Positions 14,419-31,498 of a DNA stretch of 64,000 nucleotides are shown piece by piece. Source of the stretch: a virus (taxonomy: Duplodnaviria; Caudoviricetes). Position 1 is the first letter of the stretch, and each line of letters begins with the position of its first letter. The stretch is from positions 22,814 through 86,813 of the IMG/VR virus record IMGVR_UViG_3300032335_001059. One strand, 5' to 3'. The translations under genes and the position numbers were made by a program. Below the pieces are notes generated by a model that saw only the letters and a program-made list of their open reading frames with translations, was not told the origin of the DNA and made no database searches.

Positions 14419-14829
14419 CAGATGCAATAGTTGTTCAAGAACAACAAATCACAAAGCCAGTTCCTGCTAACGAAATGGAACAATTACAATTACTTATTGA
14501 CTCAAAAGTACTTCCTTCTAACATCAAAACAATTGAGCAAGCATTTGCTATTGCTCAATATGGTAAAGATTTAGGAATGAAGCCTATGCAAGCTTTTCAT
14601 CAAATTTATTCTATTCAGGGTAGATTAGCTCTTTCATCTAAAGCATTAGGTGCTTTGATGTGGAGAAATGATATATCTATAAAAACAATAAAAGATGGCG
14701 AAATTGTAGTAAGAGGAGTTGATAGTAATGGAGTAGAAATAAAAGATAGAGTAACTACTATCGAGTTTTACAGAGGAAACATTGTAGAAACTACAAGTTT
14801 TTATTGGTCTGATGCTGTTAAAGCAGGGT
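14415..14829 (+). CDS. RecT/Red-beta-like ssDNA annealing protein, exon 1 (join 14415-14829, 15753-15940; 200 aa)
   Basis: Spliced junction reads SDAVKAG-W-TTKDNWVKMPKHMLYARC, in frame. Confidence 0.8.
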
Positions 14830-15752
14830 TAAGAGTTTAGCTCTGGGTAAATTGGGTTAATTCGGTGAAAGTCCATCAATAATTATAGACATTTTGTAAA
14901 AAAATGTACTATACTTGTAAGGATAATACCGAGCCAAGTTATAATTTAAATAATTATAAAAGGTGTAGAGACTAGGTATTGAAACTATTTAAAAATAGAA
15001 TATAATATACCCACGAAATCCCAATATTAAAATGTATAAAAAAGAAGAATGGAAACCTATTTTAGGTTTTAACAATTATTTAGCTAGTAATTTAGGAAGA
15101 ATTAAAACAAAAACTGGAAAAATTTTAAAAGGATATGACCAAAATGGTTATAAAATTGTTAAAATAACAAACAACTTAAATAAAAGAAAAACAATAGGTG
15201 TACATAGACTTATTGCTTTAGCTTTTTTACCAAATCCTAATAATTTACCAAGTGTTAATCATATTAATAAAGTAAGAAATGATAACACTATTGAAAATTT
15301 AGAATGGATGTCTGTAAAAGACAATAATGTTCATTCTAAAAAAAGAAAAAAAACTTCTTTTCAAGCAAATTCAGTATTTTATGAACGAGATTTAAAACTT
15401 ATTCATTTAATGCTTGAATATAATATTCCAAGAGAGCTTATAGAAAAAATATATCAAATTGAACGCAACACACTTACTAATTTATTTAATGATAAAACAT
15501 ATAAAGAAGATTGTGTCAAACTTGATTTAAATTTTAATAAATTTTCTAAAAAAAGAACAGCTAAAACAATTGAAGAACATAAACAAGAAATTAAACAATT
15601 ATTGCAACAAAATTATAGTTGTCGCAGTATTGCTAAAAAATTTAATGTTTCTCATTCGTCAATAATAAATTTTAATAAAGATATAGTCCGAACTACAGTA
15701 AATGATAAATCTGTAGAGCTAAAAGATAAAGAGCTTTTAGGTTAACAAATTG
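14830..15752 (+). mobile_element. Group I intron in the annealase gene
   Basis: P1 cagggt/gctctg ending in a U.G pair; P10 ggact/agttt; core aattcggtgaaa, aataccgagccaag, gtagagacta (14965-14974), aagatatagtccg (15678-15690); ends in G. Confidence 0.9.
15032..15745 (+). CDS. Intron-encoded NUMOD4-HNH homing endonuclease with a C-terminal HTH
   Basis: EEWKPI..Y.ASNLGRIK; VHRLIALAF...VNHINKVRNDN..ENLEW; lies between the P7 strands. Confidence 0.92.
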   Translation: MYKKEEWKPILGFNNYLASNLGRIKTKTGKILKGYDQNGYKIVKITNNLNKRKTIGVHRLIALAFLPNPNNLPSVNHINKVRNDNTIENLEWMSVKDNNVHSKKRKKTSFQANSVFYERDLKLIHLMLEYNIPRELIEKIYQIERNTLTNLFNDKTYKEDCVKLDLNFNKFSKKRTAKTIEEHKQEIKQLLQQNYSCRSIAKKFNVSHSSIINFNKDIVRTTVNDKSVELKDKELLG

Positions 15753-15940
15753 GGACTACTAAAGACAATTGGGTTAAAATGCCTAAACACATGCTTTATG
15801 CTCGTTGTTTAGCTTTAGGTGCTAATCGTATTGCACCAGACATGTTACTAGGTCTATATACTGTTGAAGAAATGGTAGATGTAACAAATGCAAGTAATGT
15901 AAGTATTACTGAAGACGGAGATGTAAAAATTATTAATTAA
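15753..15940 (+). CDS. Annealase exon 2
   Basis: TTKDNWVKMPKHMLYARCLALGANRIAPDMLLGLYTVEEM...IIN*; absent from the ORF track. Confidence 0.82.
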
Positions 15941-19490: not shown

Positions 19491-19779
19491 GTTTTCTAAA
19501 AAGAAGGGTAAATTAATATTGAGTCAAACTGTAATTGACCAAATTAAATATTTATGTTCTAAAATGCCATTAGTAGAATGGTCAGGTGTATTATACCACA
19601 CTAGTGAAGGTGATTTACAAAATCCAGAACAATTTACATGTAAAGCTGAATATATATTGCTATTAGATAAAGGCACTTCAGGTTATACAGAATATGATTT
19701 TTCTTCTCCTTCTTTTACAGAAGCTTTGATGGAAAAACCAGAGTTTATGGAATGGTCTATGAGCCATTGTCACTCGCAT
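19438..19779 (+). CDS. JAB/MPN+ metallopeptidase, exon 1 (join 19438-19779, 20910-21749; 393 aa)
   Basis: VEWSGVL (catalytic Glu); splicing restores the JAMM motif HSH|NNMSVFFSATD. Confidence 0.88.
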
Positions 19780-19992
19780 TCGAGAAATTGTGGTGCAGCT
19801 ACAAAGTGATTTGTAGTAAAAAATAGAGGATGAATTGCTGGAACGATGACAAAGTAATCCAATCAGCAGCCAAGCTATAGTTACAACTATAGAAGGTTCA
19901 ACGACTACCTGAGCAGTATAGTCTGCTTAATAACAGGAAGTAGCTAATAGTAGTGTATTAGTGAAAAAGCGTCCTCCAACTTAACATGTCCG

Positions 19993-20853
19993 TTAAGTTG
20001 ATGATATAGTCTGTTCGTAGTTAATTCTTTGAAGAAAAACATTATGTTTTCTTTTTAAGAAAAAAGTTAAGTTATCGTAACAAGAATAGAAATTATAAAA
20101 ATCTTTTTTATTGCATATATCTAAAATATAATAATTACTTTTATTGGTAATTTTAAATTTTTCAAGTTTAAGCTCTTCGGCAATACCTTTTAAAAAAAGA
20201 TATGTTCCGCAAATGTTTATACCGTATGTTCTATAAAATTCATTTTTTACTCTTTTATCTGTATGGGCATAAACATGACCATCGCCATCAAAATATCCTA
20301 ATATTACAGCTTTTCTAAACTGTTTAGGTATTATTGGTAAAAAATTTTCAAGAGTAAAAGTTTTATTTCTATTAATACCAAGTGCAATTAAATTTCTACA
20401 AAGAGTTTGATTACCTAATGTTATTGATGACCTATTATAAGTTTTTTTAGTTCTTTTATCATAAGGTGTAGAATTTAATATTTTAGTTTCAAATCCAATT
20501 TCGGATTTAATAAAATTTAAAAAATCAACATCTTTGGTATTAACAACAATAGTTAGATTATATAATTTTTTTATTTTATCAAAACCGATACAACCATCAG
20601 CAGCTATATACCCCAATATATAAGCTTTTGAATATGTATCAATTTTTGAAAAATAATCAACATTACCTTGTGAAGGTCTTTTATTATTATAACCGCAATC
20701 TCTTTTGAGAATATAAGTTATAGTAGGATAAGGTTTTTGCATAATTTCAGCAATTTTTAAAACAGGAGTTTTGTTTAAATACAATTCTTTAATTTTTTCA
20801 ATTTGTTCTAATGATAATCTAGTTTTCATGTTTTTTCTTTTGTTATAACACAA
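19993..20853 (-). CDS. Antisense intron-encoded LAGLIDADG homing endonuclease (start probably 20829)
   Basis: Two motifs, AYILGYIAADGCI and AVILGYFDGDGHV; N-terminal HTH-like segment. Confidence 0.9.
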   Translation of the reverse strand: MCYNKRKNMKTRLSLEQIEKIKELYLNKTPVLKIAEIMQKPYPTITYILKRDCGYNNKRPSQGNVDYFSKIDTYSKAYILGYIAADGCIGFDKIKKLYNLTIVVNTKDVDFLNFIKSEIGFETKILNSTPYDKRTKKTYNRSSITLGNQTLCRNLIALGINRNKTFTLENFLPIIPKQFRKAVILGYFDGDGHVYAHTDKRVKNEFYRTYGINICGTYLFLKGIAEELKLEKFKITNKSNYYILDICNKKDFYNFYSCYDNLTFFLKRKHNVFLQRINYEQTISST

Positions 20854-20881
20854 AGGTAAGAATAAAACTTATAATAACAAA
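20851..20881 (-). promoter_or_regulatory. Bacteroidota promoter driving the antisense endonuclease
   Basis: On the minus strand: TTTG (20881-20878), 19-nt spacer, TACCTTTG (20858-20851), an exact match to TTTG-N19-TAnnTTTG. Confidence 0.78.
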
Positions 20882-20909
20882 TTTTCTTAATGTTTGCTAC
20901 GAGTAAACG

Positions 20910-21749
20910 AACAATATGAGCGTATTTTTTAGCGCGACTGACAATGAAGAACTTACAGATAATGCTCCTAATTACAACTACTACCTTTCGTTAATTGTAA
21001 ATAACAAAAATGAATATTGCGCTAGAATTGCATTCATTGGTGAAATTGAAGGTAGGACAATAAAATTTAAAGATAGACACGGAGTAGAGCAAGCAATAAC
21101 TTCAGCAAATAAACAAGTTACATTTTATTACGAAATGGAAATATTTGCTGAAAGTTCTAATTTAATTGATGATTTCTTTGTTAAGCAGTATGAAAAAGTA
21201 ATTGCAGCTAAACCAGTACAAACTTTTCCGCAATTTGAAAATAGTTATACAAATTATAACGTTACTAATTATGAAAATTATGGTATAGGTTATAATAAAA
21301 ATTATGCAAAAAATAATTACAAACAAGGTAAATTATTTGATGACAAAAGTACTGAAAAGATTGAAGATAAATTAACTTGGGATTCTCAAGCTGTAAACTT
21401 TATTAAAAGATTGATTGATGTAAATTATACTATGGAAAACATAGCATTTTATTTAAACTACAATCAAGATTATTCTTCTCCTTTACATAATTATTTAGAT
21501 GATTTGATTCCTAAAAACAAAGGACATTTCAAAAACAATAAAGAAGTTAAAGAATTTATTGAAAATAGAGTAGCTAATGCAGATGAAGTATTTGAATATT
21601 TTTCAATTACTTGTGATGAGTATGATAATACAAGTGATTTAAATGATGTATGGATAGATTCTATTAATTTTCTAAAAGCAAGTAGTTTTAAAAATCATCC
21701 AACATCAAAATTAATTATAGAAGAAATGGACAAATGGGTATGGAAATAA
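20910..21749 (+). CDS. JAB/MPN+ peptidase exon 2 with a long C-terminal extension
   Basis: NNMSVFFSATDNEEL...YYLSLIVNN continues the JAB fold. Confidence 0.88.
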   Translation, partial: NNMSVFFSATDNEELTDNAPNYNYYLSLIVNNKNEYCARIAFIGEIEGRTIKFKDRHGVEQAITSANKQVTFYYEMEIFAESSNLIDDFFVKQYEKVIAAKPVQTFPQFENSYTNYNVTNYENYGIGYNKNYAKNNYKQGKLFDDKSTEKIEDKLTWDSQAVNFIKRLIDVNYTMENIAFYLNYNQDYSSPLHNYLDDLIPKNKGHFKNNKEVKEFIENRVANADEVFEYFSITCDEYDNTSDLNDVWIDSINFLKASSFKNHPTSKLIIEEMDKWVWK

Positions 21750-21925
21750 AAAAAATTAAACAAAGTACAGTAAGATTTTCAGAAGCTTACTTTTATAAAC
21801 CAAATGTAGAAGTACTAGTATTAGGATTAGGGGGTATCGGCTCATGGCTGACCCTCAATCTTGCTAGATTAGAATGTAATTTACATTTATACGATTATGA
21901 TTTAATTGATGAAGTAAATTTAGCT
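21734..21925 (+). CDS. ThiF/E1-like adenylyltransferase, exon 1 (join 21734-21925, 23173-23664; 227 aa)
   Basis: VLVLGLGGIGSW (GxGxxG); YDYDLIDEVNLA|GQMY across the junction. Confidence 0.88.
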
Positions 21926-21935
21926 AGGAATATTC

Positions 21936-21978
21936 TATTATATTAATTATTTTTGTATATACAAAAAATAATATAATG
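21936..21978 (+). promoter_or_regulatory. TAnnTTTG element (21948-21955) inside a hairpin that pairs with the endonuclease ATG
   Basis: tattata...tttttgt/acaaaaa...tataatg stem; no clear -33 element. Confidence 0.5.
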
Positions 21979-23043
21979 GATAAATACTCAGGAGAATTTA
22001 AAACAATTGACACACAAGAAAAAGCTTATGTTTTAGGCTTGTTTTACGCAGATGGATATATTTATAAAAGAAAATATAGTTATTTTTCAGGAATTACTTT
22101 ACATTTAAAAGATGAATATTTAATAGATAAATTATGTGAAATTTTTTCTTTTTTTCAAAAAACTTTTGACAAAAGTAAACCTTCAACAATACATTTGAGA
22201 TGTAATGTAAAAGAATTTATTTTAGATTTAAAAGCAAACGGAATGCATGAAAGAAAATCTTTTGAAAACAAAGAGAATTTACATGTACCAAATATTGATA
22301 AATCTTTAATTAATCATTTTATTAGAGGATTTTTTGATGGAGATGGTAGTGTTTATTTTAGTAAAACTGCATCTATAAATTCTAAATATTGTACTTTTAC
22401 AGGAGTATGTTTTTCTTTTTTAAAAGAAATTCAGGAAATTTTAAAAACAAATAATATTAATTTTAGATTTACAATTAATAAACTTTCTAAAAAAGAATCT
22501 TACATTTTTGGAAGAAAAATTAATAATCCACAAGATGTTGGAATATTAACTTTATCTTTAAGAAAAGAAATTGAATTTTTTTCAAATTTTTTATATAAAA
22601 ATAGTAATATACATCTTTATAGAAAATATGAAATAATGAATTCTTGGACAGAAACTTTATCTGAAAGATTTATATGTAGAATATGTAATTCTAAAAATAC
22701 AATATTTGTAGGAAAAAATAAATATAAATGTAAAAATTGTAATAAAATAATTCCAATAATAGGTAATATTTTTGTTAAAAAAACAAGCAAGCCTTGTAAA
22801 CATTGTAATTCACTAAATACCGTAGGAAACGGTAAAACTAAAAGTAGAACTACAAATGAAATAATATCTGAAAAATTTTTGTGTAGAAATTGTAATAAAA
22901 ACTCCAGTTATTTAATGACTGGTCTTAATAACAGTAATGTTATTAATGGAGAGGATGAATTGACTGGAAAGCTAAGGGATGAAAGACTCCTATGCCAATC
23001 AGCAGCCAAGCCGTCAGAGACGGAAGGTTCAGAGACTACCTGA
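21976..23043 (+). CDS. Intron-encoded LAGLIDADG endonuclease with two C-terminal C4 zinc ribbons
   Basis: AYVLGLFYADGYI and HFIRGFFDGDGSV; CRIC..CKNC and CKHC..CRNC; ORF reads into the ribozyme core. Confidence 0.9.
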   Translation: MDKYSGEFKTIDTQEKAYVLGLFYADGYIYKRKYSYFSGITLHLKDEYLIDKLCEIFSFFQKTFDKSKPSTIHLRCNVKEFILDLKANGMHERKSFENKENLHVPNIDKSLINHFIRGFFDGDGSVYFSKTASINSKYCTFTGVCFSFLKEIQEILKTNNINFRFTINKLSKKESYIFGRKINNPQDVGILTLSLRKEIEFFSNFLYKNSNIHLYRKYEIMNSWTETLSERFICRICNSKNTIFVGKNKYKCKNCNKIIPIIGNIFVKKTSKPCKHCNSLNTVGNGKTKSRTTNEIISEKFLCRNCNKNSSYLMTGLNNSNVINGEDELTGKLRDERLLCQSAAKPSETEGSETT

Positions 23044-23172
23044 GTAATAGCGATATTACTTAATAACAGGAAGTAGTTATAATATATATTGAAGTTATAA
23101 TGAAAAAGTGTCCTCCATCCTTATAGGATGAAGATATAGTCCATGCCGCATAGAAATATGGGATAAACATTG

Positions 23173-23664
23173 GGTCAAATGTATGCTAATACTGATATTG
23201 GATTGAGAAAACTTGATAGTATTAATAGTTTAGTTAATTTATTATGTGATAAACCTAATATAATTTCTTTAAATGAAAAATATACTAATGAAAGTTTGAC
23301 TGGTCCAATAGTATTTTCTTGTTTTGACAATATGGCTGCAAGAAAATTAGCTTTTGATAAATGGAAAGCTGAAGACGATAGAGAACTTTTTATTGATGGA
23401 AGAATGGCACTTTCAACAGGAGAAGTTTATTGTGTAACAAAAGGAAAAGAAAAAGAATACGAAAGAACTTTATTTGATGATTCTGAAGTTGAAGATGCTG
23501 CTTGTAGTATGAAAGCAACTACTTTTAGTGGTATGACTATCGCAAGTATAATGACAGCATTATTTTGTAATTATGTAGGTACAACTTTAAATCCAGATTT
23601 ACCAGTTAATTTATCTTTTAAAACAACTTATAATTTTCCGTTAATGATGTTTGAAAGTATATGA
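23173..23664 (+). CDS. ThiF/E1-like exon 2
   Basis: IVFSCFDNMAARK, FIDGRM, candidate catalytic Cys in EDAACSMK; no Zn-binding CxxC pairs. Confidence 0.88.
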   Translation, partial: GQMYANTDIGLRKLDSINSLVNLLCDKPNIISLNEKYTNESLTGPIVFSCFDNMAARKLAFDKWKAEDDRELFIDGRMALSTGEVYCVTKGKEKEYERTLFDDSEVEDAACSMKATTFSGMTIASIMTALFCNYVGTTLNPDLPVNLSFKTTYNFPLMMFESI

Positions 23665-24929
23665 TAATTTTTAAAAACACAAGACGTTTTAATAATTCAC
23701 TTCCTGAAGTAGAAATAGATATAAGAAGTTTAAACATTATTCCTTTATTTGATATAATTGATGCTCCTTTTGGATTAATCAAATATGATTCAAATCCTAT
23801 ACTTTCTAAAAATAAAACTGCTAGTAGAATTTTACATAATAAAAATCTAATTTATAGATATTCTTATTCAGGTCAATTATTACATTATGATTATGAATAT
23901 TTAAAATCAAAGTATATAGATTTTAAAAAAAGAATAAAAAATGAAGTTTATTTCTTTTTTAATGAAAAAGTAAATTTTATTACTACTATCAATAATACTA
24001 ATATTCAATTTAATGAAAAAGTATTTATTAATACTGAATATATAACAAATAATTTTCAATTTAGAGGTAATAACCAATTTATAAAAAATACTTTTGATAA
24101 ATTTTCAACAAAAAAAGTAATTAGAAATAATGAAAAATTAGCTATTTATTTTGGTTCTGTTTTTAAAGAAGTCGATGAAGGTATATATCCTGTTTTACTA
24201 TCAGGTATTGATGCAAATAAAATAAATTCTTTTAAATCAAATTTAATAAATACTTTAGTAAATGAACCTACTGATTTTAATTCAGTTAAAGTTTATATAG
24301 ACAAAGATTGGTATTTAGATTCATGCAATAAATCTTTAAAAATATATTTGTTAAAAAATTTAGAAGAAAAATATTATAATTACGAACTTATATTGTTTGA
24401 CGGTAAAGAATTTGCTAATCAAAATATGTTTTCTTATCAACCTTTATCTTTTTCTACTCTTAGTAAGAGAAAAAAGTATTTTAATGATATTGAAGCTAAA
24501 CTTTATGAATTAATGCTAGATGATTATAAAGATAGTTTTGACTATAAAGCTGAACAAGAAAAGTTTTTAAATAAATACAATCAATTATTAGAAAATAATA
24601 GAAAAGAAAAACAAGATAAAGAAGAAAATAAATCTGAAATATTAGAAACTAGAAGTTTAACTTCAGAAGAAATGTCTTTAATTGATTCGTTATTTTATAA
24701 TAATGTAGAAGAGGAAATTGTTCCACGTGTAATTTCTACAGACATAATGAATGAAGCTATTGGTAATAGTATAGAATATCAAGAAGTACCTGTACTTAAT
24801 TTAATTCCAGTTTTACAAGAATTAAGTCCTACAAGTCAACTTCTTTCTACAATATCAGAAATAGATAATACATTTGCAGATTTAGAAGAAGAATTACGTA
24901 GAATAGCTAATGAAATACAAAATGGATAA
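23661..24929 (+). CDS. Hypothetical protein with an acidic tail, translationally coupled to E1
   Basis: 422 aa, ATGA overlap. Confidence 0.75.
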   Translation: MIIFKNTRRFNNSLPEVEIDIRSLNIIPLFDIIDAPFGLIKYDSNPILSKNKTASRILHNKNLIYRYSYSGQLLHYDYEYLKSKYIDFKKRIKNEVYFFFNEKVNFITTINNTNIQFNEKVFINTEYITNNFQFRGNNQFIKNTFDKFSTKKVIRNNEKLAIYFGSVFKEVDEGIYPVLLSGIDANKINSFKSNLINTLVNEPTDFNSVKVYIDKDWYLDSCNKSLKIYLLKNLEEKYYNYELILFDGKEFANQNMFSYQPLSFSTLSKRKKYFNDIEAKLYELMLDDYKDSFDYKAEQEKFLNKYNQLLENNRKEKQDKEENKSEILETRSLTSEEMSLIDSLFYNNVEEEIVPRVISTDIMNEAIGNSIEYQEVPVLNLIPVLQELSPTSQLLSTISEIDNTFADLEEELRRIANEIQNG

Positions 24930-25539
24930 AAATTTTAAACACATATATACTTTAGAAATTCCTAAGTATATAACATCAGTACAAACTTCTAAATCAATTA
25001 GACCTAAATATTATTCTAATATTGCTGGAATAGGTAGAGTTAATAAATGTCCTAAGAAATTAGAAGGTGCTCAAGTAGACAGTAAAGGTTTTTATCTTGA
25101 CAAAGATGGTAACAAAATTGTAGCTAATACAAGAAGTGTAGGTAAAGCTAGGCAAGTTCCTATTAATGCTCAAATACTTTATGTAGGTAGTACATGGAAT
25201 AGAGTTGCTATTAAAAATGGATTAGAAGAATTTTTTATAGATTACATTAAAGATATGCCAGTTTTTACTGGTAGTATTGCAATGGAATGTGAAATTCATA
25301 CTATAATAGGACATTCTCAAGCAGATTTGGACAATTTAGGTTATATGTATGGTAAAGTATTGACTGACACTATGGTAAACATGGGAAGATTAGTTGATGA
25401 CAAAGTACCTTATGTAACTAAACCTTGTTCAGCTCCTTTATTTTATCCTGTTGATTCATTTGATGATAGAAAATTAGTTTATCATTTTTATCAAGATAAA
25501 AGACCTGAAATATTAAAATTAAATAAAGTAGAAGATTAA
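24910..25539 (+). CDS. RusA-like Holliday junction resolvase
   Basis: ADLDNLGYMYGKVLTDTMVNMGRLVDD resembles the RusA DxDN..K...D.......DD motif. Confidence 0.65.
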   Translation: MKYKMDKNFKHIYTLEIPKYITSVQTSKSIRPKYYSNIAGIGRVNKCPKKLEGAQVDSKGFYLDKDGNKIVANTRSVGKARQVPINAQILYVGSTWNRVAIKNGLEEFFIDYIKDMPVFTGSIAMECEIHTIIGHSQADLDNLGYMYGKVLTDTMVNMGRLVDDKVPYVTKPCSAPLFYPVDSFDDRKLVYHFYQDKRPEILKLNKVED

Positions 25540-25580
25540 TTTCTTCTACTTTATTTTTAAAATTAAAAAATTAAATTAAT

Positions 25581-25826
25581 ATGAAAAAAATAATTATCAC
25601 TATTCTAGTAGCTATTATAATGCTACCTTCGTGTAAAAAAGAATGTAACTTTCCACCTGCTCCATACGGAACAGCAGACAATGTAAGCGAGTATAGCTCT
25701 ACTGGGTACAACTCAATTACCTACACCTACTACTGCTATAGCGGTAGGTACACAGCCGTAACCTATACCAATACGGAAGGTTGTGTTTGGGAAGATAGTT
25801 ACTATTATTCTAATTGTATAAAATAA
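25581..25826 (+). CDS. Small lipoprotein
   Basis: MKK, hydrophobic stretch, lipobox-like LPSC; stop codon lies in the TAAC of an attC-like site. Confidence 0.75.
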   Translation: MKKIIITILVAIIMLPSCKKECNFPPAPYGTADNVSEYSSTGYNSITYTYYCYSGRYTAVTYTNTEGCVWEDSYYYSNCIK

Positions 25827-25945
25827 CTTTTCCGAGTATTGCCGCAGTAGCAGAATTACAAAACATCAAAGTAAAAACAAATGGAAAATAAAGAACAAAA
25901 AGTTGAAACAGGCACAGAAGCTGCTATTGTCGACAATATTGTGTT
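25824..25945. mobile_element. attC-like site A
   Basis: TAAC ... arm 25837-25853 / arm 25921-25938 (one extra T) ... GTT; 67-nt central loop. Confidence 0.55.
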
Positions 25946-26132
25946 GCCTGCCGTTTTTTCGCAGGATTATTTAGAGTGGGTAAAGCAAGCCAATTTGCCT
26001 CCACTAACAAATACACAGCATAAATTTGCGGAGTGGTTACTACAAGAAGATAATAGAAAAGTTATTTCTCAAATTGGCGGATTTGATGAAATATTTATTT
26101 CTGTTCGTAAGTGGGTCAAAAATTTCAGCTAA
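25881..26132 (+). CDS. Cassette protein whose start lies inside site A and whose stop lies in site B
   Basis: 83 aa; AAIVDNIV is encoded by the right arm of site A. Confidence 0.65.
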   Translation: MENKEQKVETGTEAAIVDNIVLPAVFSQDYLEWVKQANLPPLTNTQHKFAEWLLQEDNRKVISQIGGFDEIFISVRKWVKNFS

Positions 26133-26206
26133 CGTTTTCGGGCTTGGCGAAGTGGCTTTTGTGCGTTGGCTTGTGTGTCGGAAAGCCATTTTGCCAAACC
26201 CGTGTT
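26130..26206. mobile_element. attC-like site B
   Basis: TAAC, then a 21-bp stem cgggcttggcgaagtggcttt/aaagccattttgccaaacccg, then GTT. Confidence 0.65.
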
Positions 26207-26280
26207 ATATGAAGTGCCGACTTATTTACGATAAAGCCCAATTGAAACAATAAACAGAAAAACAAAAAGAAAAAAAAGCG

Positions 26281-26424
26281 ATGGAAGAATATAAAAAAAT
26301 ACCTTATAAAAAGGTTTCAAATTTTGGAAAAAGATTGAGAGATAAATCCAAAATAGAAGACCGTGAGTTTATAAAAAAACAACAAATATCTTTAATTAAA
26401 GCAAAAAAAATAATAGTAAAATGA
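26281..26424 (+). CDS. Small basic protein (47 aa)
   Basis: Hand translation MEEYKKIPYKKVSNFGKRL...; ATGA-coupled to the next ORF. Confidence 0.5.
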   Translation: MEEYKKIPYKKVSNFGKRLRDKSKIEDREFIKKQQISLIKAKKIIVK

Positions 26425-26753
26425 ATACAGGAAATATGTCAAATGACGAGGCAGAATCAATAGGTAAATTTATTGAACAACTTAACAATATACAGCCATT
26501 TTGCAAAGCAAGTGTTACTCGCAGTAATTTATCCAAAGGGATGTGTGTACAGGATAGTGAAGGCAAAAAAGGTGTTATTAGAAATTGTGAGGACTTGCAC
26601 AATGTTCACGTAACTTTTGAAGGCGAAGGAATTGAAATAGATTGGTACGAAATACCTTTTGAGTGCGGTGGAAGTGGGCTGTATTGCTTCGTTGAAGATT
26701 GTCAAGGTAATTGTGAAAACGAAAAATTTATAAATAAGTTTTTTGTAATATAA
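26421..26753 (+). CDS. Cassette protein with an SH3/KOW-like beta pattern and a Cys-rich end
   Basis: LSKGMCVQDSEGKKGVIRNCEDLHNVHVTF; GSGLYCFVEDC. Confidence 0.65.
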   Translation: MNTGNMSNDEAESIGKFIEQLNNIQPFCKASVTRSNLSKGMCVQDSEGKKGVIRNCEDLHNVHVTFEGEGIEIDWYEIPFECGGSGLYCFVEDCQGNCENEKFINKFFVI

Positions 26754-26906
26754 CAATATAAAGATAGTATTCATAAATGTGCGGTGGCTTTTTTCTTTTT
26801 GTTTTTCCTTCACGGAACTTCAATTGGAAACGGTCAGCAAGGCATTTCATATAACGTGCTAATACCCGATACTAATACACGCATATACAACAAAATAAAA
26901 AATAAA

Positions 26907-27155
26907 ATGGATTTAACTAACTACGAATTTAGGATTTACAATGGCAGAATTAAGGTCTGCTACAAAGGGGCTGTGATGTTTACCTTCAACCAAATAGACT
27001 TCTTGAGCTACTACTTTTTTAAAGATGATACTCAGCTGTATGGCATGACCCTACACTTCCTCAGAGAAAAGGCAGGAGGACATGAGATGGATGTCTATTT
27101 TAAAGATAAAGAAACTTGGCTAGCAGTTAATAAATTGTTAGACGAGAATATGTAA
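26907..27155 (+). CDS. Hypothetical protein with atypical (GC3-richer) codons
   Basis: Likely start ATG at 26907 after an A-rich leader; upstream in-frame sequence is repeat DNA. Confidence 0.65.
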   Translation: MDLTNYEFRIYNGRIKVCYKGAVMFTFNQIDFLSYYFFKDDTQLYGMTLHFLREKAGGHEMDVYFKDKETWLAVNKLLDENM

Positions 27156-27174
27156 AACAAATAAACATACGAAA

Positions 27175-27417
27175 ATGGAAAAAGAATCAAATAAAATGAC
27201 TGCGGTTGAATGGGTATTACAATATTTGAATAATGTAAAACCAAATGAATTTTGTTCAATAGAAAAAATAAAAGAACTTTTGGAACAAGCCAAAGAAATG
27301 GAGAAGGAGCAAATGTTTAATTCGTTTATGGCATTTGAATCTAATACTGAAGAAAACGAAAAGTTATTTGATGAATACTACAAAGAAACATACGGAGGTA
27401 ACAATGAGCAACAATAA
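27175..27417 (+). CDS. TAVEW/QAKEMEKEQ/YYxETYGGN family paralog 1
   Basis: 80 aa with three constant anchors. Confidence 0.75.
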   Translation: MEKESNKMTAVEWVLQYLNNVKPNEFCSIEKIKELLEQAKEMEKEQMFNSFMAFESNTEENEKLFDEYYKETYGGNNEQQ

Positions 27418-27655
27418 ACAACAGACGGCAGTTCAGTGGTTTATTGAGCAACTTGAACAGAAGGGAGATGCTTGGGAAAAAGTAAGCATTAGACAAATAA
27501 AAATATCAGTTGATGTTAGCGATTATCTTGACCTAAAAAGACAAGCCAAAGAAATGGAGAAAGAGCAGATTATGGATGCACATTATGCACCAAAATACGG
27601 ATGTTTTAATAAAGATTACTACAACGAAACATACGGAGGTAACAATGGGAAATAA
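27404..27655 (+). CDS. TAVEW/QAKEMEKEQ/YYxETYGGN family paralog 2
   Basis: Start reassigned to ATG 27404 at the end of the repeat (MSNNKQQTAVQW). Confidence 0.75.
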   Translation: MSNNKQQTAVQWFIEQLEQKGDAWEKVSIRQIKISVDVSDYLDLKRQAKEMEKEQIMDAHYAPKYGCFNKDYYNETYGGNNGK

Positions 27656-27776
27656 GCAGACAAAAAAAGAAGTTAATATAACTGAATATATTTATGGAGT
27701 AGCAATATTTATTATGCTATTTATTATGGTATTAGGTTCAATTTTATGGGTATTAGGATACGGAGGTAACAAATGA
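27645..27776 (+). CDS. Single-TM mini-protein ending in YGGNK
   Basis: Start reassigned to ATG 27645 at the end of the repeat. Confidence 0.6.
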   Translation: MGNKQTKKEVNITEYIYGVAIFIMLFIMVLGSILWVLGYGGNK

Positions 27777-29602: not shown

Positions 29603-30092
29603 AGATATAACAATAATACTAGGAGTATTTATTTTAGGTTTGTTTGTAGGTTTAAAAAGTCATTACTACAATAAAGAATCAAAACAATTAGATGAAGTTT
29701 ATTGTATTACTGATAGTAATAATTTATGTAAAACTTTATATTTTGAAAAGCATAAAATTAGATTTTCACATATAGTTTATGCTCAAGCAATGTTAGAATC
29801 TAACAATTTTAAATCAAAACTTTGTAAAGAAAACAACAATATATTTGGAATGAAAGTTCCAGCTCAAAGATTTACATTTTGTAATAATCCTTATGATTAT
29901 GGAAATTACGCAAAATACGATAATATTGAAAGTTGTGTTTTAGATTACAAAGCTTGGCAAATGCAAAATGCTTATAATATTACTACTGAAGAAGGTTATT
30001 TTAATCTTCTTCGTAGTATATATGCTGAAGATACTGAATATGTTAACAAATTAAAAAAAATAATAGATGGAAATAAATCAAGAAATAATTAA
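29586..30092 (+). CDS. GH73-type glucosaminidase (peptidoglycan hydrolase) with an N-terminal TM
   Basis: AQAMLESNNF..L..ENNNIFGMK ... YAKY ... YAED..Y. Confidence 0.82.
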   Translation: MKEWIRDITIILGVFILGLFVGLKSHYYNKESKQLDEVYCITDSNNLCKTLYFEKHKIRFSHIVYAQAMLESNNFKSKLCKENNNIFGMKVPAQRFTFCNNPYDYGNYAKYDNIESCVLDYKAWQMQNAYNITTEEGYFNLLRSIYAEDTEYVNKLKKIIDGNKSRNN

Positions 30093-30357
30093 AACTATTC
30101 ACGATAGAAATGGATATTTTTACAATCTTCACAAAGCTTCAGAAGAATGCCAAGAATTAGGATTAATTCTTAATCAAAAATTACTTAAACAAGAAAAAGT
30201 TGCAGATGAAGCAATTATTAACGAAATTGGTGATGTAATTATTAGATTAGAAATACTTAAGTTAATGTTTGATAATGATAAAATTCAAGAAAGAGTTAAT
30301 TATAAATTAGCTAAGTTTGAAGAATATATTGAGCAAAATAGATATAATAAGATATGA
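30067..30357 (+). CDS. MazG-like nucleotide pyrophosphohydrolase
   Basis: EECQEL ... NEIGDV (ExxE/ExxD). Confidence 0.75.
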   Translation: MEINQEIIKTIHDRNGYFYNLHKASEECQELGLILNQKLLKQEKVADEAIINEIGDVIIRLEILKLMFDNDKIQERVNYKLAKFEEYIEQNRYNKI

Positions 30358-31133
30358 AAATAGCTATTCTTGATTGTGATTCAATAGCTTATACTATTGG
30401 TCATGGTAATAAAATACAAATTGATGAAGTTGATGGAGAACCTGTTTATCAAAGAGATGAGTTAGGAAGATTAGTTTACAATGATAAAACTGAAGAACAA
30501 CTAATAGAATCTTGCAATTTTGTTATAGGAGATATTTTAAACAAAGGAGGCTTTACTCATTATGTTGGCTATATTAAAGGTGTTAATACTATATCTCATA
30601 AATTAAATTTTAATCCAACTTATAAACAAGATAGAAAATTAGAACAACCTAAGTGGTGGAATTTTGTTAAATCTTATTTAGTAAACAATTATAATATATT
30701 TTTAGCTAATGATTTTGAAGTTGACGATTATGTTGTTTCAGCTTATAAATGTATTCCTAATTCTCATATTGTAGCTATTGATTCAGATATTCTTGCAACA
30801 ACAGGTACTCATTATAACTGGAGAAAAAATGAATGGGTAACTGTAACAGAAGACCAAGAAAGATATGCTTTTTGGAGTCAAATGATTACAGGTAATCACA
30901 ATAATATTAAAGGTTTAGCTAAGAAAGGTGCAAAATATGCTGAAGGTGTTTTAAAAGGTATAGATGTATTTAAAGATAATATAGCTTCTATAATGCTAAC
31001 AGAATATATTGACCATTATAAAGATATTACTTTAGCTATTGACGAATATTATAAAAATTATAAATCGTTAAAAGTTATAGATAATATAATTGTTGACAAT
31101 AATATAGTAAAAGAATGGGGATTTGATTTATGA
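30354..31133 (+). CDS. 5'-3' exonuclease / flap endonuclease
   Basis: ILDCDSIAY, YKQDR, EVDD, IDSD, ITGNHNNIKGL..KGAKYA. Confidence 0.82.
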   Translation: MKIAILDCDSIAYTIGHGNKIQIDEVDGEPVYQRDELGRLVYNDKTEEQLIESCNFVIGDILNKGGFTHYVGYIKGVNTISHKLNFNPTYKQDRKLEQPKWWNFVKSYLVNNYNIFLANDFEVDDYVVSAYKCIPNSHIVAIDSDILATTGTHYNWRKNEWVTVTEDQERYAFWSQMITGNHNNIKGLAKKGAKYAEGVLKGIDVFKDNIASIMLTEYIDHYKDITLAIDEYYKNYKSLKVIDNIIVDNNIVKEWGFDL

Positions 31134-31498
31134 TAGTTGATAATGAAGGTAATAAAATATTTTTAAAAGATAATAATATTTATCTTAAACTAGCAATTGA
31201 AAATTTTAACAGATTATTAGGTAAATTAAATAAAAATACTTGTTCATTACATGTTTATAGAAATTATGATAAACATTTGCATATATTAACAAATTCTTTT
31301 GGATTTAATTACGCATTATTGCATGCAGCTACTAAATTTAATAAAATAATATTAGAAACTAATAAGAATGAAAAATTTGATATACCTGTAAATTATATAC
31401 TATCTAAAGGAACTTTTTTATTTTTTAAAAATAAAGGTTTTGAAAAACAAATTTTTTGCACTTTAACTGAATTAGAAAATTTTAAAATAATAAATTAA
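31130..31498 (+). CDS. Hypothetical protein
   Basis: 122-aa ORF. Confidence 0.7.
   Translation: MIVDNEGNKIFLKDNNIYLKLAIENFNRLLGKLNKNTCSLHVYRNYDKHLHILTNSFGFNYALLHAATKFNKIILETNKNEKFDIPVNYILSKGTFLFFKNKGFEKQIFCTLTELENFKIIN

Follow-up and report, generated by a model that had tools for sequence, protein, structure and literature searches.

A candidate integron-like gene cassette, led by a hairpin, in a Bacteroidota phage

How can a phage that encodes no integrase come to carry what looks like an integron cassette? The question is raised by a 64,000-nucleotide (nt) stretch of phage DNA (positions 22,814 to 86,813 of IMG/VR virus record IMGVR_UViG_3300032335_001059; hereafter the window), in which a first-pass annotation made from the sequence alone proposed an array of small genes bounded by attC-type hairpins and moved by an enzyme supplied in trans. 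As argued below, positions 26134-26855 are probably one complete mobile cassette, part of an integron-like system found widely in Bacteroidota phages and working by the mechanism proposed here. The integron-like proposal was largely right, in that the site belongs to an attC-like family, but the layout is inverted with respect to integrons, the window holds no array, and the enzyme associated with the family is not an IntI integrase.

The hairpin at 26130-26207 and the unit behind it

The central feature of the locus is an attC-like hairpin, site B, which opens with the second of three copies of the tetranucleotide TAAC, all of them present as first reported (25824-25827, 26130-26133 and 26852-26855; Table 1). 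Its stem is formed by pairing of 26139-26159 with 26182-26202, and the DNA fold (-16.6 kcal/mol, z -3.4) is not equalled by any of 200 shuffled sequences. Site B also matches covariance model R1 with 54.2 bits (E 6.5e-8), confirming the imperfect-stem hairpin between TAAC and GTT that had been described, and an Rfam search of 25400-27300 returned no match to an RNA family. The whole of attC-style site architecture, namely an imperfect palindrome with AAC and GTT cores and two paired boxes around an unpaired spacer, is found in 26130-26207.

Behind site B lies a complete unit, U2, whose anatomy matches that of the units by which L047 and L041 differ from L042 (see below). The first-pass annotation had noted that the left end of the unit mirrors its own right end, and this is borne out: GTTATATGAAGTGCC (26204-26218) mirrors GGCATTTCATATAAC (26841-26855) at 14 of 15 positions, within an inverted repeat some 70 nt long, made up of three blocks, that includes a perfect 19-mer (26257-26275 and 26789-26807). 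At position 11 the G of the left arm opposes a T in the right arm, and U2 obeys all the rules that its family keeps for paired ends, the mismatch included. Around the third TAAC (26852-26855) the sequence does not fold and no hairpin comes after it; this TAAC is the end of a cassette, not a hairpin. When the junction of an excised circle is modelled, by joining 26841-26855 to 26134-26218, the result is one continuous hairpin of -27.4 kcal/mol (z -8.8), as compared to -18.7 kcal/mol for U2 in its array context. The coding strand of the site folds better than the bottom strand (-20.8 kcal/mol).

The cargo of U2 consists of two open reading frames (ORFs). The central part of the longer one, of 110 amino acids (aa), has relatives at 80-83% identity in L010-L012, which have no sites nearby, and its N-terminal 29 aa are common to L013 and L105.

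Upstream, the two ORFs said to stop in a TAAC (25581..25826 and 25881..26132) do terminate within its TAA. The region between these two stops had been read as a further unit behind a second attC-type hairpin, site A (25824-25945), and here the proposal does not hold. The fold of site A is not better than that of shuffled sequence (z +0.98; 169 of 200 shuffles do at least as well), and its score under the family covariance model is weak (11.7 bits, E = 6), so that a covariance search of the window, a check of the kind first suggested, recovers site B and not site A. Site A is therefore rejected as a hairpin and retained as a possible decayed site: the 83-aa ORF 25881..26132 has its ATG and A-rich leader within the loop, and the site's length of 123 nt, together with this start codon in the loop, matches a class of sites of about 125 nt on other contigs. 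The mirror reported for the ends of the enclosed unit, U1 (GTTgcCTG and CAGctAAC), is weak, GTTGCCTGCCGTTTT and the reverse complement GTTAGCTGAAATTTT agreeing at 10 of 15 positions, although the G/A of the family is present at position 11. Positions 25828-26133 may be a second, decayed cassette. For its 83-aa ORF a search for relatives found none, and there was no Pfam match.

A single firm site in the 64 kb of the window does not make an array, contrary to the first proposal. Clusters of attC sites without an integrase (CALINs) are defined by at least two nearby attC sites, and the window has one that is firm. A further match at 14752-14831 (23.9 bits) lies inside coding sequence beside a group I intron insertion and was discarded as a site.

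Table 1. Coordinates of the cassette locus and of recombinase genes in related phages
Feature	Position	Strand	Remarks
TAAC core	25824..25827	+	Contains stop codon of 81-aa lipoprotein gene; cassette junction common to the window and relative L007
Site A, possible decayed big-loop site	25824..25946	+	123 nt; 16-bp stem, 25837-25853 with 25921-25938; 3' core GTTG at 25943-25946
Candidate decayed unit U1	25828..26133	+	Contains 83-aa ORF 25881..26132; ends in TAAC
attC-like site B	26130..26207	+	TAAC, 5 unpaired nt, imperfect stem of about 20 bp, 22-nt loop, 1 unpaired nt, GTTA
Complete cassette unit U2	26134..26855	+	722 nt; hairpin, GTTA, left arm, two ORFs, right arm closing in TAAC
Left arm	26204..26275	+	First 15 nt, GTTATATGAAGTGCC, pair with U2's own right end; remainder is A-rich leader of first ORF
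Cargo ORF, 47 aa	26281..26424	+	No Pfam match; 89% identical copy behind same left arm in L061
Cargo ORF, 110 aa	26421..26753	+	Cys-rich; no Pfam match; partial relatives in other contigs
Right arm	26789..26855	+	Ends ...GGCATTTCATATAAC; 3' end of U2; TAAC core 26852-26855
Junction sequence after last TAAC	26856..26906	+	No hairpin (fold test); then leader of gene 26907..27155; homology to L006 resumes at 26892 inside A-rich leader
Small Xer-like recombinase genes	L110 1183-2079; L112 1195-2028; L111 1420-2289; L113 1468-2268	- (L111, L113)	After last TAAC of arrays in four phage records; 277-aa product in L112

A family of hairpin-led cassettes with mirrored ends

Site B is one member of a family of sites of the form TAACG-stem-loop-stem-GTTA, found on dozens of contigs from Bacteroidota phages as well as in cultured phages of Flavobacterium and Polaribacter. 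An exact 19-mer from site B is present in 46 viral contigs, and in the family alignment conservation starts at TAAC, with unrelated sequence upstream and several sequence classes downstream of GTTA. At the other end of the unit, an exact 23-mer from the right arm is present in 21 viral contigs, where conservation ends exactly at TAAC and the sequence beyond it is unrelated; by class, the right arm covaries with the left arm. The succession of hairpin, left arm, variable cargo (0.2-1.4 kb) and right arm recurs in about 25 loci. At L024 7222-8031 the left and right arms of the window surround an N6/N4 DNA methyltransferase gene, showing that one arm pair can frame quite different cargo. DNA methyltransferases are the commonest cargo among the relatives (35 loci), followed by Mom and C-5 methylase, and one cargo family carries a PAPS-reductase domain.

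The hairpins themselves are defined by structure more than by sequence. Those found ahead of the same left arm can have very different arms, and loops of 10-100 nt, yet all keep TAACG...GTTA, and in a big-loop class the loop takes in the A-rich leader of the next gene together with its ATG. A consensus from 28 diverse sites shows compensatory changes in 11 of 17 pairs. The geometry is fixed, in that 48 of 86 arm families have their first paired base 9 nt from the T of TAAC, and on the coding strand the stems contain 83 G.T pairs versus 20 A.C mismatches. A stop codon within TAAC was considered as a further rule of the family and dropped, being true for only about 12 of 55 loci.

Arrays do exist in relatives. 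Seven sites, or up to eight, fall within 4.5 kb in L068, 42 or more, all on one strand, extend over 37 kb of the 170-kb phage G012, and the cultured Flavobacterium phage mumin6-1 has seven with methyltransferase cassettes; by the CALIN definition, L068, L007 and mumin6-1 each have two or more close sites. In the phage arrays examined, the sites are on the gene strand and co-oriented with the genes. In bacterial genome collections the true matches are on small contigs of metagenome-assembled genomes and not on isolate chromosomes, and under strict filters only 3 of 141 sampled Flavobacteriaceae genomes have covariance-model matches. One of these three, a Flavobacteriaceae chromosome (L134, contig G090:C4, 3790-7418), bears three family sites of about 126 nt that run opposite to the genes, the classical integron orientation, interspersed with genes for a NACHT NTPase, a glycosyltransferase, a GNAT protein, a methyltransferase and an amidohydrolase; no recombinase is encoded within the 17 kb read around them.

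The mirrored ends of U2 are likewise a property of the family. Across 96 unique cassettes the two ends of a cassette share 7.9 of 14 nt on average, as compared to 4.6 for the flanks of the same hairpin and 4.4 for random pairs. In L068 each segment between sites has mirrored ends of its own sequence, and the sequences on either side of a given hairpin show no such mirroring. The 53 well-mirrored cassettes have 46 distinct end sequences (11-mers), in which pairing covers positions 5-15 counted from the G of GTTA and stops at 16, positions 5-9 and 12-15 being paired in about 95-100%. In 50 of the 53, position 11 is G on the left and A in the reverse-complemented right end, that is, a G.T mismatch on the coding strand. 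Sequences that vary while pairing is kept, around a mismatch that is fixed, point to recognition of the ends as a folded strand, rather than to a protein that reads a fixed terminal repeat.

Empty and occupied junctions were directly observed. L042 reads ...CACTAAC followed by TACTCGAC, and at the same point L047 is longer by 1603 nt and L041 by 190 nt. Both inserts open with a hairpin and close with TAAC, without target duplication, and the mobile unit is therefore the hairpin plus its cassette, placed 3' of a TAAC. A junction of the window itself behaves in the same way: the lipoprotein gene is homologous to that of L007 (92% identity) up to 25827, and divergence begins with the next base, which in L007 opens a family hairpin (L007 7541-7628, 68.9 bits). 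For U2, no relative with an empty site was found; gain and loss exact to the core were seen for L042, L047 and L041 and at 25827. Related contigs thus display both gain and loss exact to the core and homologous hairpins that bound other genes, the two expectations on which the earlier proposal hung. Together, the family, the mirrored ends and the TAAC-exact gain and loss support site B and the unit behind it as an attC-like cassette defined by structure.

Integrons, the recombinase and the competing explanations

The likeness to integrons is extensive. In both systems the sites are imperfect palindromes with AAC...GTT as cores and a pair of helices flanking an unpaired spacer; both apparently rely on shape, with sequences that vary and pairs that covary, and in both the start of a cassette complements its own site (14 of 15 positions in U2, and the excess over hairpin flanks across the 96 cassettes). 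Co-oriented arrays, insertion without target duplication and a tyrosine recombinase at the end of the array are also shared. There are differences as well. In the phage family the hairpin precedes the gene and often contains its start codon, whereas attC follows the gene; the coding strand folds better, whereas in integrons the bottom strand is the recombinogenic one; the outer helix has 15 bp and a fixed G.T, as against 7 bp and extrahelical bases in integrons; and the recombinase gene is downstream of the array, in the same direction, and encodes a Xer-like protein that scores below IntI cut-offs. Read on the opposite strand, a unit of the family has the layout of an integron cassette with its genes inverted.

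Some of this ground has been touched in print. CALINs have been reported in virulent phages (Qi et al. 2023, PMC9892861). One of the sites in that study, P12002L_attC1, lies between methyltransferase genes of a Polaribacter phage; HattCI alone predicted it, and it is a member of the hairpin family described here. One site of the family is thus already published as a predicted attC; apart from that site, literature searches found no description of this phage cassette system. Integrons are almost absent from Bacteroidetes (PMC9024848). The rAID-1 arrays of Bacteroidales, which are associated with XerD and have repetitive intergenic sequences called integron-reminiscent (Ross et al. 2019, 10.1101/471110), share with the phage system a Bacteroidota setting and a tyrosine recombinase of the XerD family next to a co-directional array of small accessory genes. 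The rAID-1 recombinase is defined as XerD-like with more than 44% identity to BF9343_RS08045, and its gene array as low in GC with motifs repeated between the genes. Compared by description, rAID-1 differs in having its recombinase 5' of the array, interbacterial immunity genes as cargo and a location on bacterial chromosomes, whereas the phage recombinase is 3' of the array and the phage cargo is mostly concerned with DNA modification.

Which enzyme could move such units? The report that the window encodes no integrase can be extended to the entire 86.8-kb virus record (CheckV completeness 99%), in which a search with PF00589 found no tyrosine recombinase. In four other phage records (G012, G024, G025 and G042) an array is closed by a Xer-like tyrosine recombinase of 266-298 aa, with 36-48% mutual identity, whose gene, on the same strand, begins 20-60 nt beyond the last TAAC. 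These proteins score 151-169 bits against TIGR02249, below its cut-off of 265, and leave unmatched the profile region 180-238, which holds the IntI-specific insertion. They are Xer-like and not IntI. Homologues at 31-43% identity occur in 120 of the 141 Flavobacteriaceae genomes, which makes a host counterpart uninformative. NinG was considered as the enzyme and rejected, being found in only 9 fetched loci; neither NinG nor a Y1 transposase (PF01797) is found in the window's genome. The absence of a recombinase from this phage, together with its presence beside arrays elsewhere, fits the supply of an enzyme in trans that was first suggested, although the type of enzyme is not the IntI of an integron.

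The mechanism that we infer would begin with excision of the unit as a circle, bringing its right end to its own hairpin, where the last 15 nt, ending in TAAC, would pair with the 15 nt starting at GTTA; for U2 the expected junction would read ...CATATAAC joined directly to GTTTTCGGG. Folded as single-stranded DNA, the coding strand would form one long site of two helices, the outer of 15 bp with the fixed G.T at position 11 and the inner of about 20 bp, separated by an asymmetric bulge (5 nt opposite 1-2 nt). The small Xer-like tyrosine recombinase found next to arrays would read this shape rather than the sequence and catalyse strand exchange at the TAAC core, with cleavage within or at TAAC, and the unit would be inserted directly 3' of another TAAC without target duplication. 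Having one unit and no recombinase, the phage carries the cassette as an orphan, which would have been acquired earlier, or would be mobile only if the enzyme came from a co-infecting phage or from the host.

Several observations weigh against this interpretation. Both the structure scan and the covariance model give one firm site only in the window. A tyrosine recombinase is present in just 5 of 50 records with sites, and in 3 of the 13 that are at least 90% complete, and P12002L_attC1, the one family member tried with IntI1, was the only tested phage site that this integrase did not recombine (PMC9892861). Sites resembling a circle junction were looked for in the contigs and none was seen, nor was any recombination event directly observed. 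Hairpins have been reassorted against the cassettes on either side of them, a pattern that a single fixed crossover point explains incompletely, and the G.T bias of the stems, lying on the transcribed strand, fits a role at the RNA level equally well. Lastly, the close relative L006 lacks 25577-26891, a segment comprising the lipoprotein gene and both units, with breakpoints in similar A-rich leaders and not in cores. The expected gain and loss at cores is therefore found in L042 versus L047 and L041, and in the window versus L007, but not in this deletion; ordinary recombination must also move these genes.

The RNA-level role is the alternative that deserves most attention, in the form of hairpins and arms that are RNase III sites, terminators or start-codon-enclosing translational controls and are exchanged by ordinary homologous recombination. 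The sites are always on the gene strand, and so transcribed, with G.U-compatible pairs favoured there (83 versus 20); stems of about 20 bp and big loops that enclose an A-rich leader with the next ATG would suit such modules, and the canonical hairpin and both arms, near-identical across many contigs, are good substrates for homologous exchange, of a kind with the gene-sized indels in leaders that do occur. What this account leaves unexplained is the complementarity of cassette ends 0.1-1.4 kb apart despite 46 distinct sequences, with its fixed length and fixed mismatch, as well as the different units cut exactly after TAAC at one junction where the shared flank is only 4 nt, and the tyrosine recombinase gene that closes arrays. 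No U-tract lies 3' of the site B hairpin, which also speaks against a terminator-like module. On balance this explanation is improbable, though not negligible. The PeSL cassettes of T4-type phages, mobile regulatory promoter-stem-loop modules exchanged via homology of promoter plus terminator, offer a parallel in their conserved intergenic stem-loops, which lie beside small accessory genes in hypervariable parts of phage genomes and are associated with gene shuffling, and differ from the present family in its exact junctions at a 4-nt core and its self-complementary cassette ends.

Transposition has been weighed in two forms. Units that were non-autonomous, PATE-like single-strand transposons of the IS200/IS605 type, inserted 3' of a tetranucleotide by a Y1 HUH transposase, would account for insertion exactly 3' of TAAC without target duplication, for a unit that ends in the same tetranucleotide, for a subterminal imperfect hairpin beginning 5 nt from the left junction and for the folding bias of one strand. 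Yet a Y1 transposase is present in only 1 of 50 records with sites and missing from the window's own genome, the right end has no hairpin of its own, where IS200/IS605 elements have subterminal ones at both ends, and arrays close at a tyrosine recombinase gene and not at TnpA; dense tandem arrays, here of 42 or more units, are moreover atypical of the IS200/IS605 family, and such an origin seems quite unlikely. Less likely still, to the point of being very hard to credit, is a miniature transposon at 26204-26855 with terminal inverted repeats of about 70 bp, mobilised by a DDE-type transposase and unrelated to the adjacent hairpin. The three-block inverted repeat is real and encloses variable cargo in about 25 loci, but the junctions have no target-site duplication, no transposase was seen in the loci, the hairpin is included in the inserted unit, and ends that vary freely and stay complementary (46 distinct among 53 cassettes) point to pairing, not to recognition of a fixed sequence by a protein.

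If units are moved by a structure-specific recombinase, as the integron-like interpretation has it, there would be a dedicated gene-capture system in the phages of a phylum nearly without integrons, which would account for the spread, between unrelated phages, of DNA methyltransferases, of Mom-like and other DNA-modification genes, and of many small genes of no known family. It would also be a second, independently organised case of folded-DNA recombination, with rules of its own (15-bp pairing of ends, a G.T at position 11 and a 5-nt bulge). The wider proposal would be that Bacteroidota phages run their own integron analogue, in which a small Xer-like recombinase acts on cassettes headed by a hairpin and folded on the coding strand, and anti-restriction and accessory genes are traded between unrelated phages at co-infection, with the window's orphan a live substrate in trans; its chances are slightly better than even. 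With one unit and no enzyme, the window offers a natural test of movement in trans.

Neighbouring features of the phage genome

As to the source of the window, Bacteroidota phage of the Flavobacterium type would be a fair label, judging from a thymidylate synthase region similar to that of Flavobacterium phage immuto and from the hairpin pieces found in cultured Flavobacterium phages. The higher G+C content that the first-pass annotation assigned to the cassettes is real, at 0.33-0.38 in the block versus 0.17-0.26 upstream, but is not confined to them; it continues to about 29.1 kb and thus covers the whole region of small genes.

Gene-sized indels with breakpoints in A-rich leaders just before an ATG are seen at 25577 and 26892 of the window and at 4074-4333 of L064. 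Comparison of these genomes indicates a second, apparently homology-driven, route by which small genes are gained and lost in these phages. Other blocks present or absent among five related phages are 21925-23173, 19767-20910, 30073-30354 and 31118-31498, and ORF 21976..23043 sits in such a block of 1247 nt. A 925-nt insertion at 14828-15753 splits a coding sequence that is uninterrupted in relative L009; it contains a partial Rfam match to group I introns (14859-14976, 27 bits, E 1.4e-4) and a 237-aa ORF (15032..15745), and is likely a group I intron with a gene of the homing-endonuclease type.

Closer to the cassette, a perfect 15-bp AT-rich hairpin of terminator-like appearance (25521-25556) is directly 3' of gene 24910..25539. 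Downstream, at 27175-27776, are three adjacent small paralogous genes whose products end in ...(E)TYGGN(N/K), each overlapping the start codon of the next within ACGGAGGTAACAATG.

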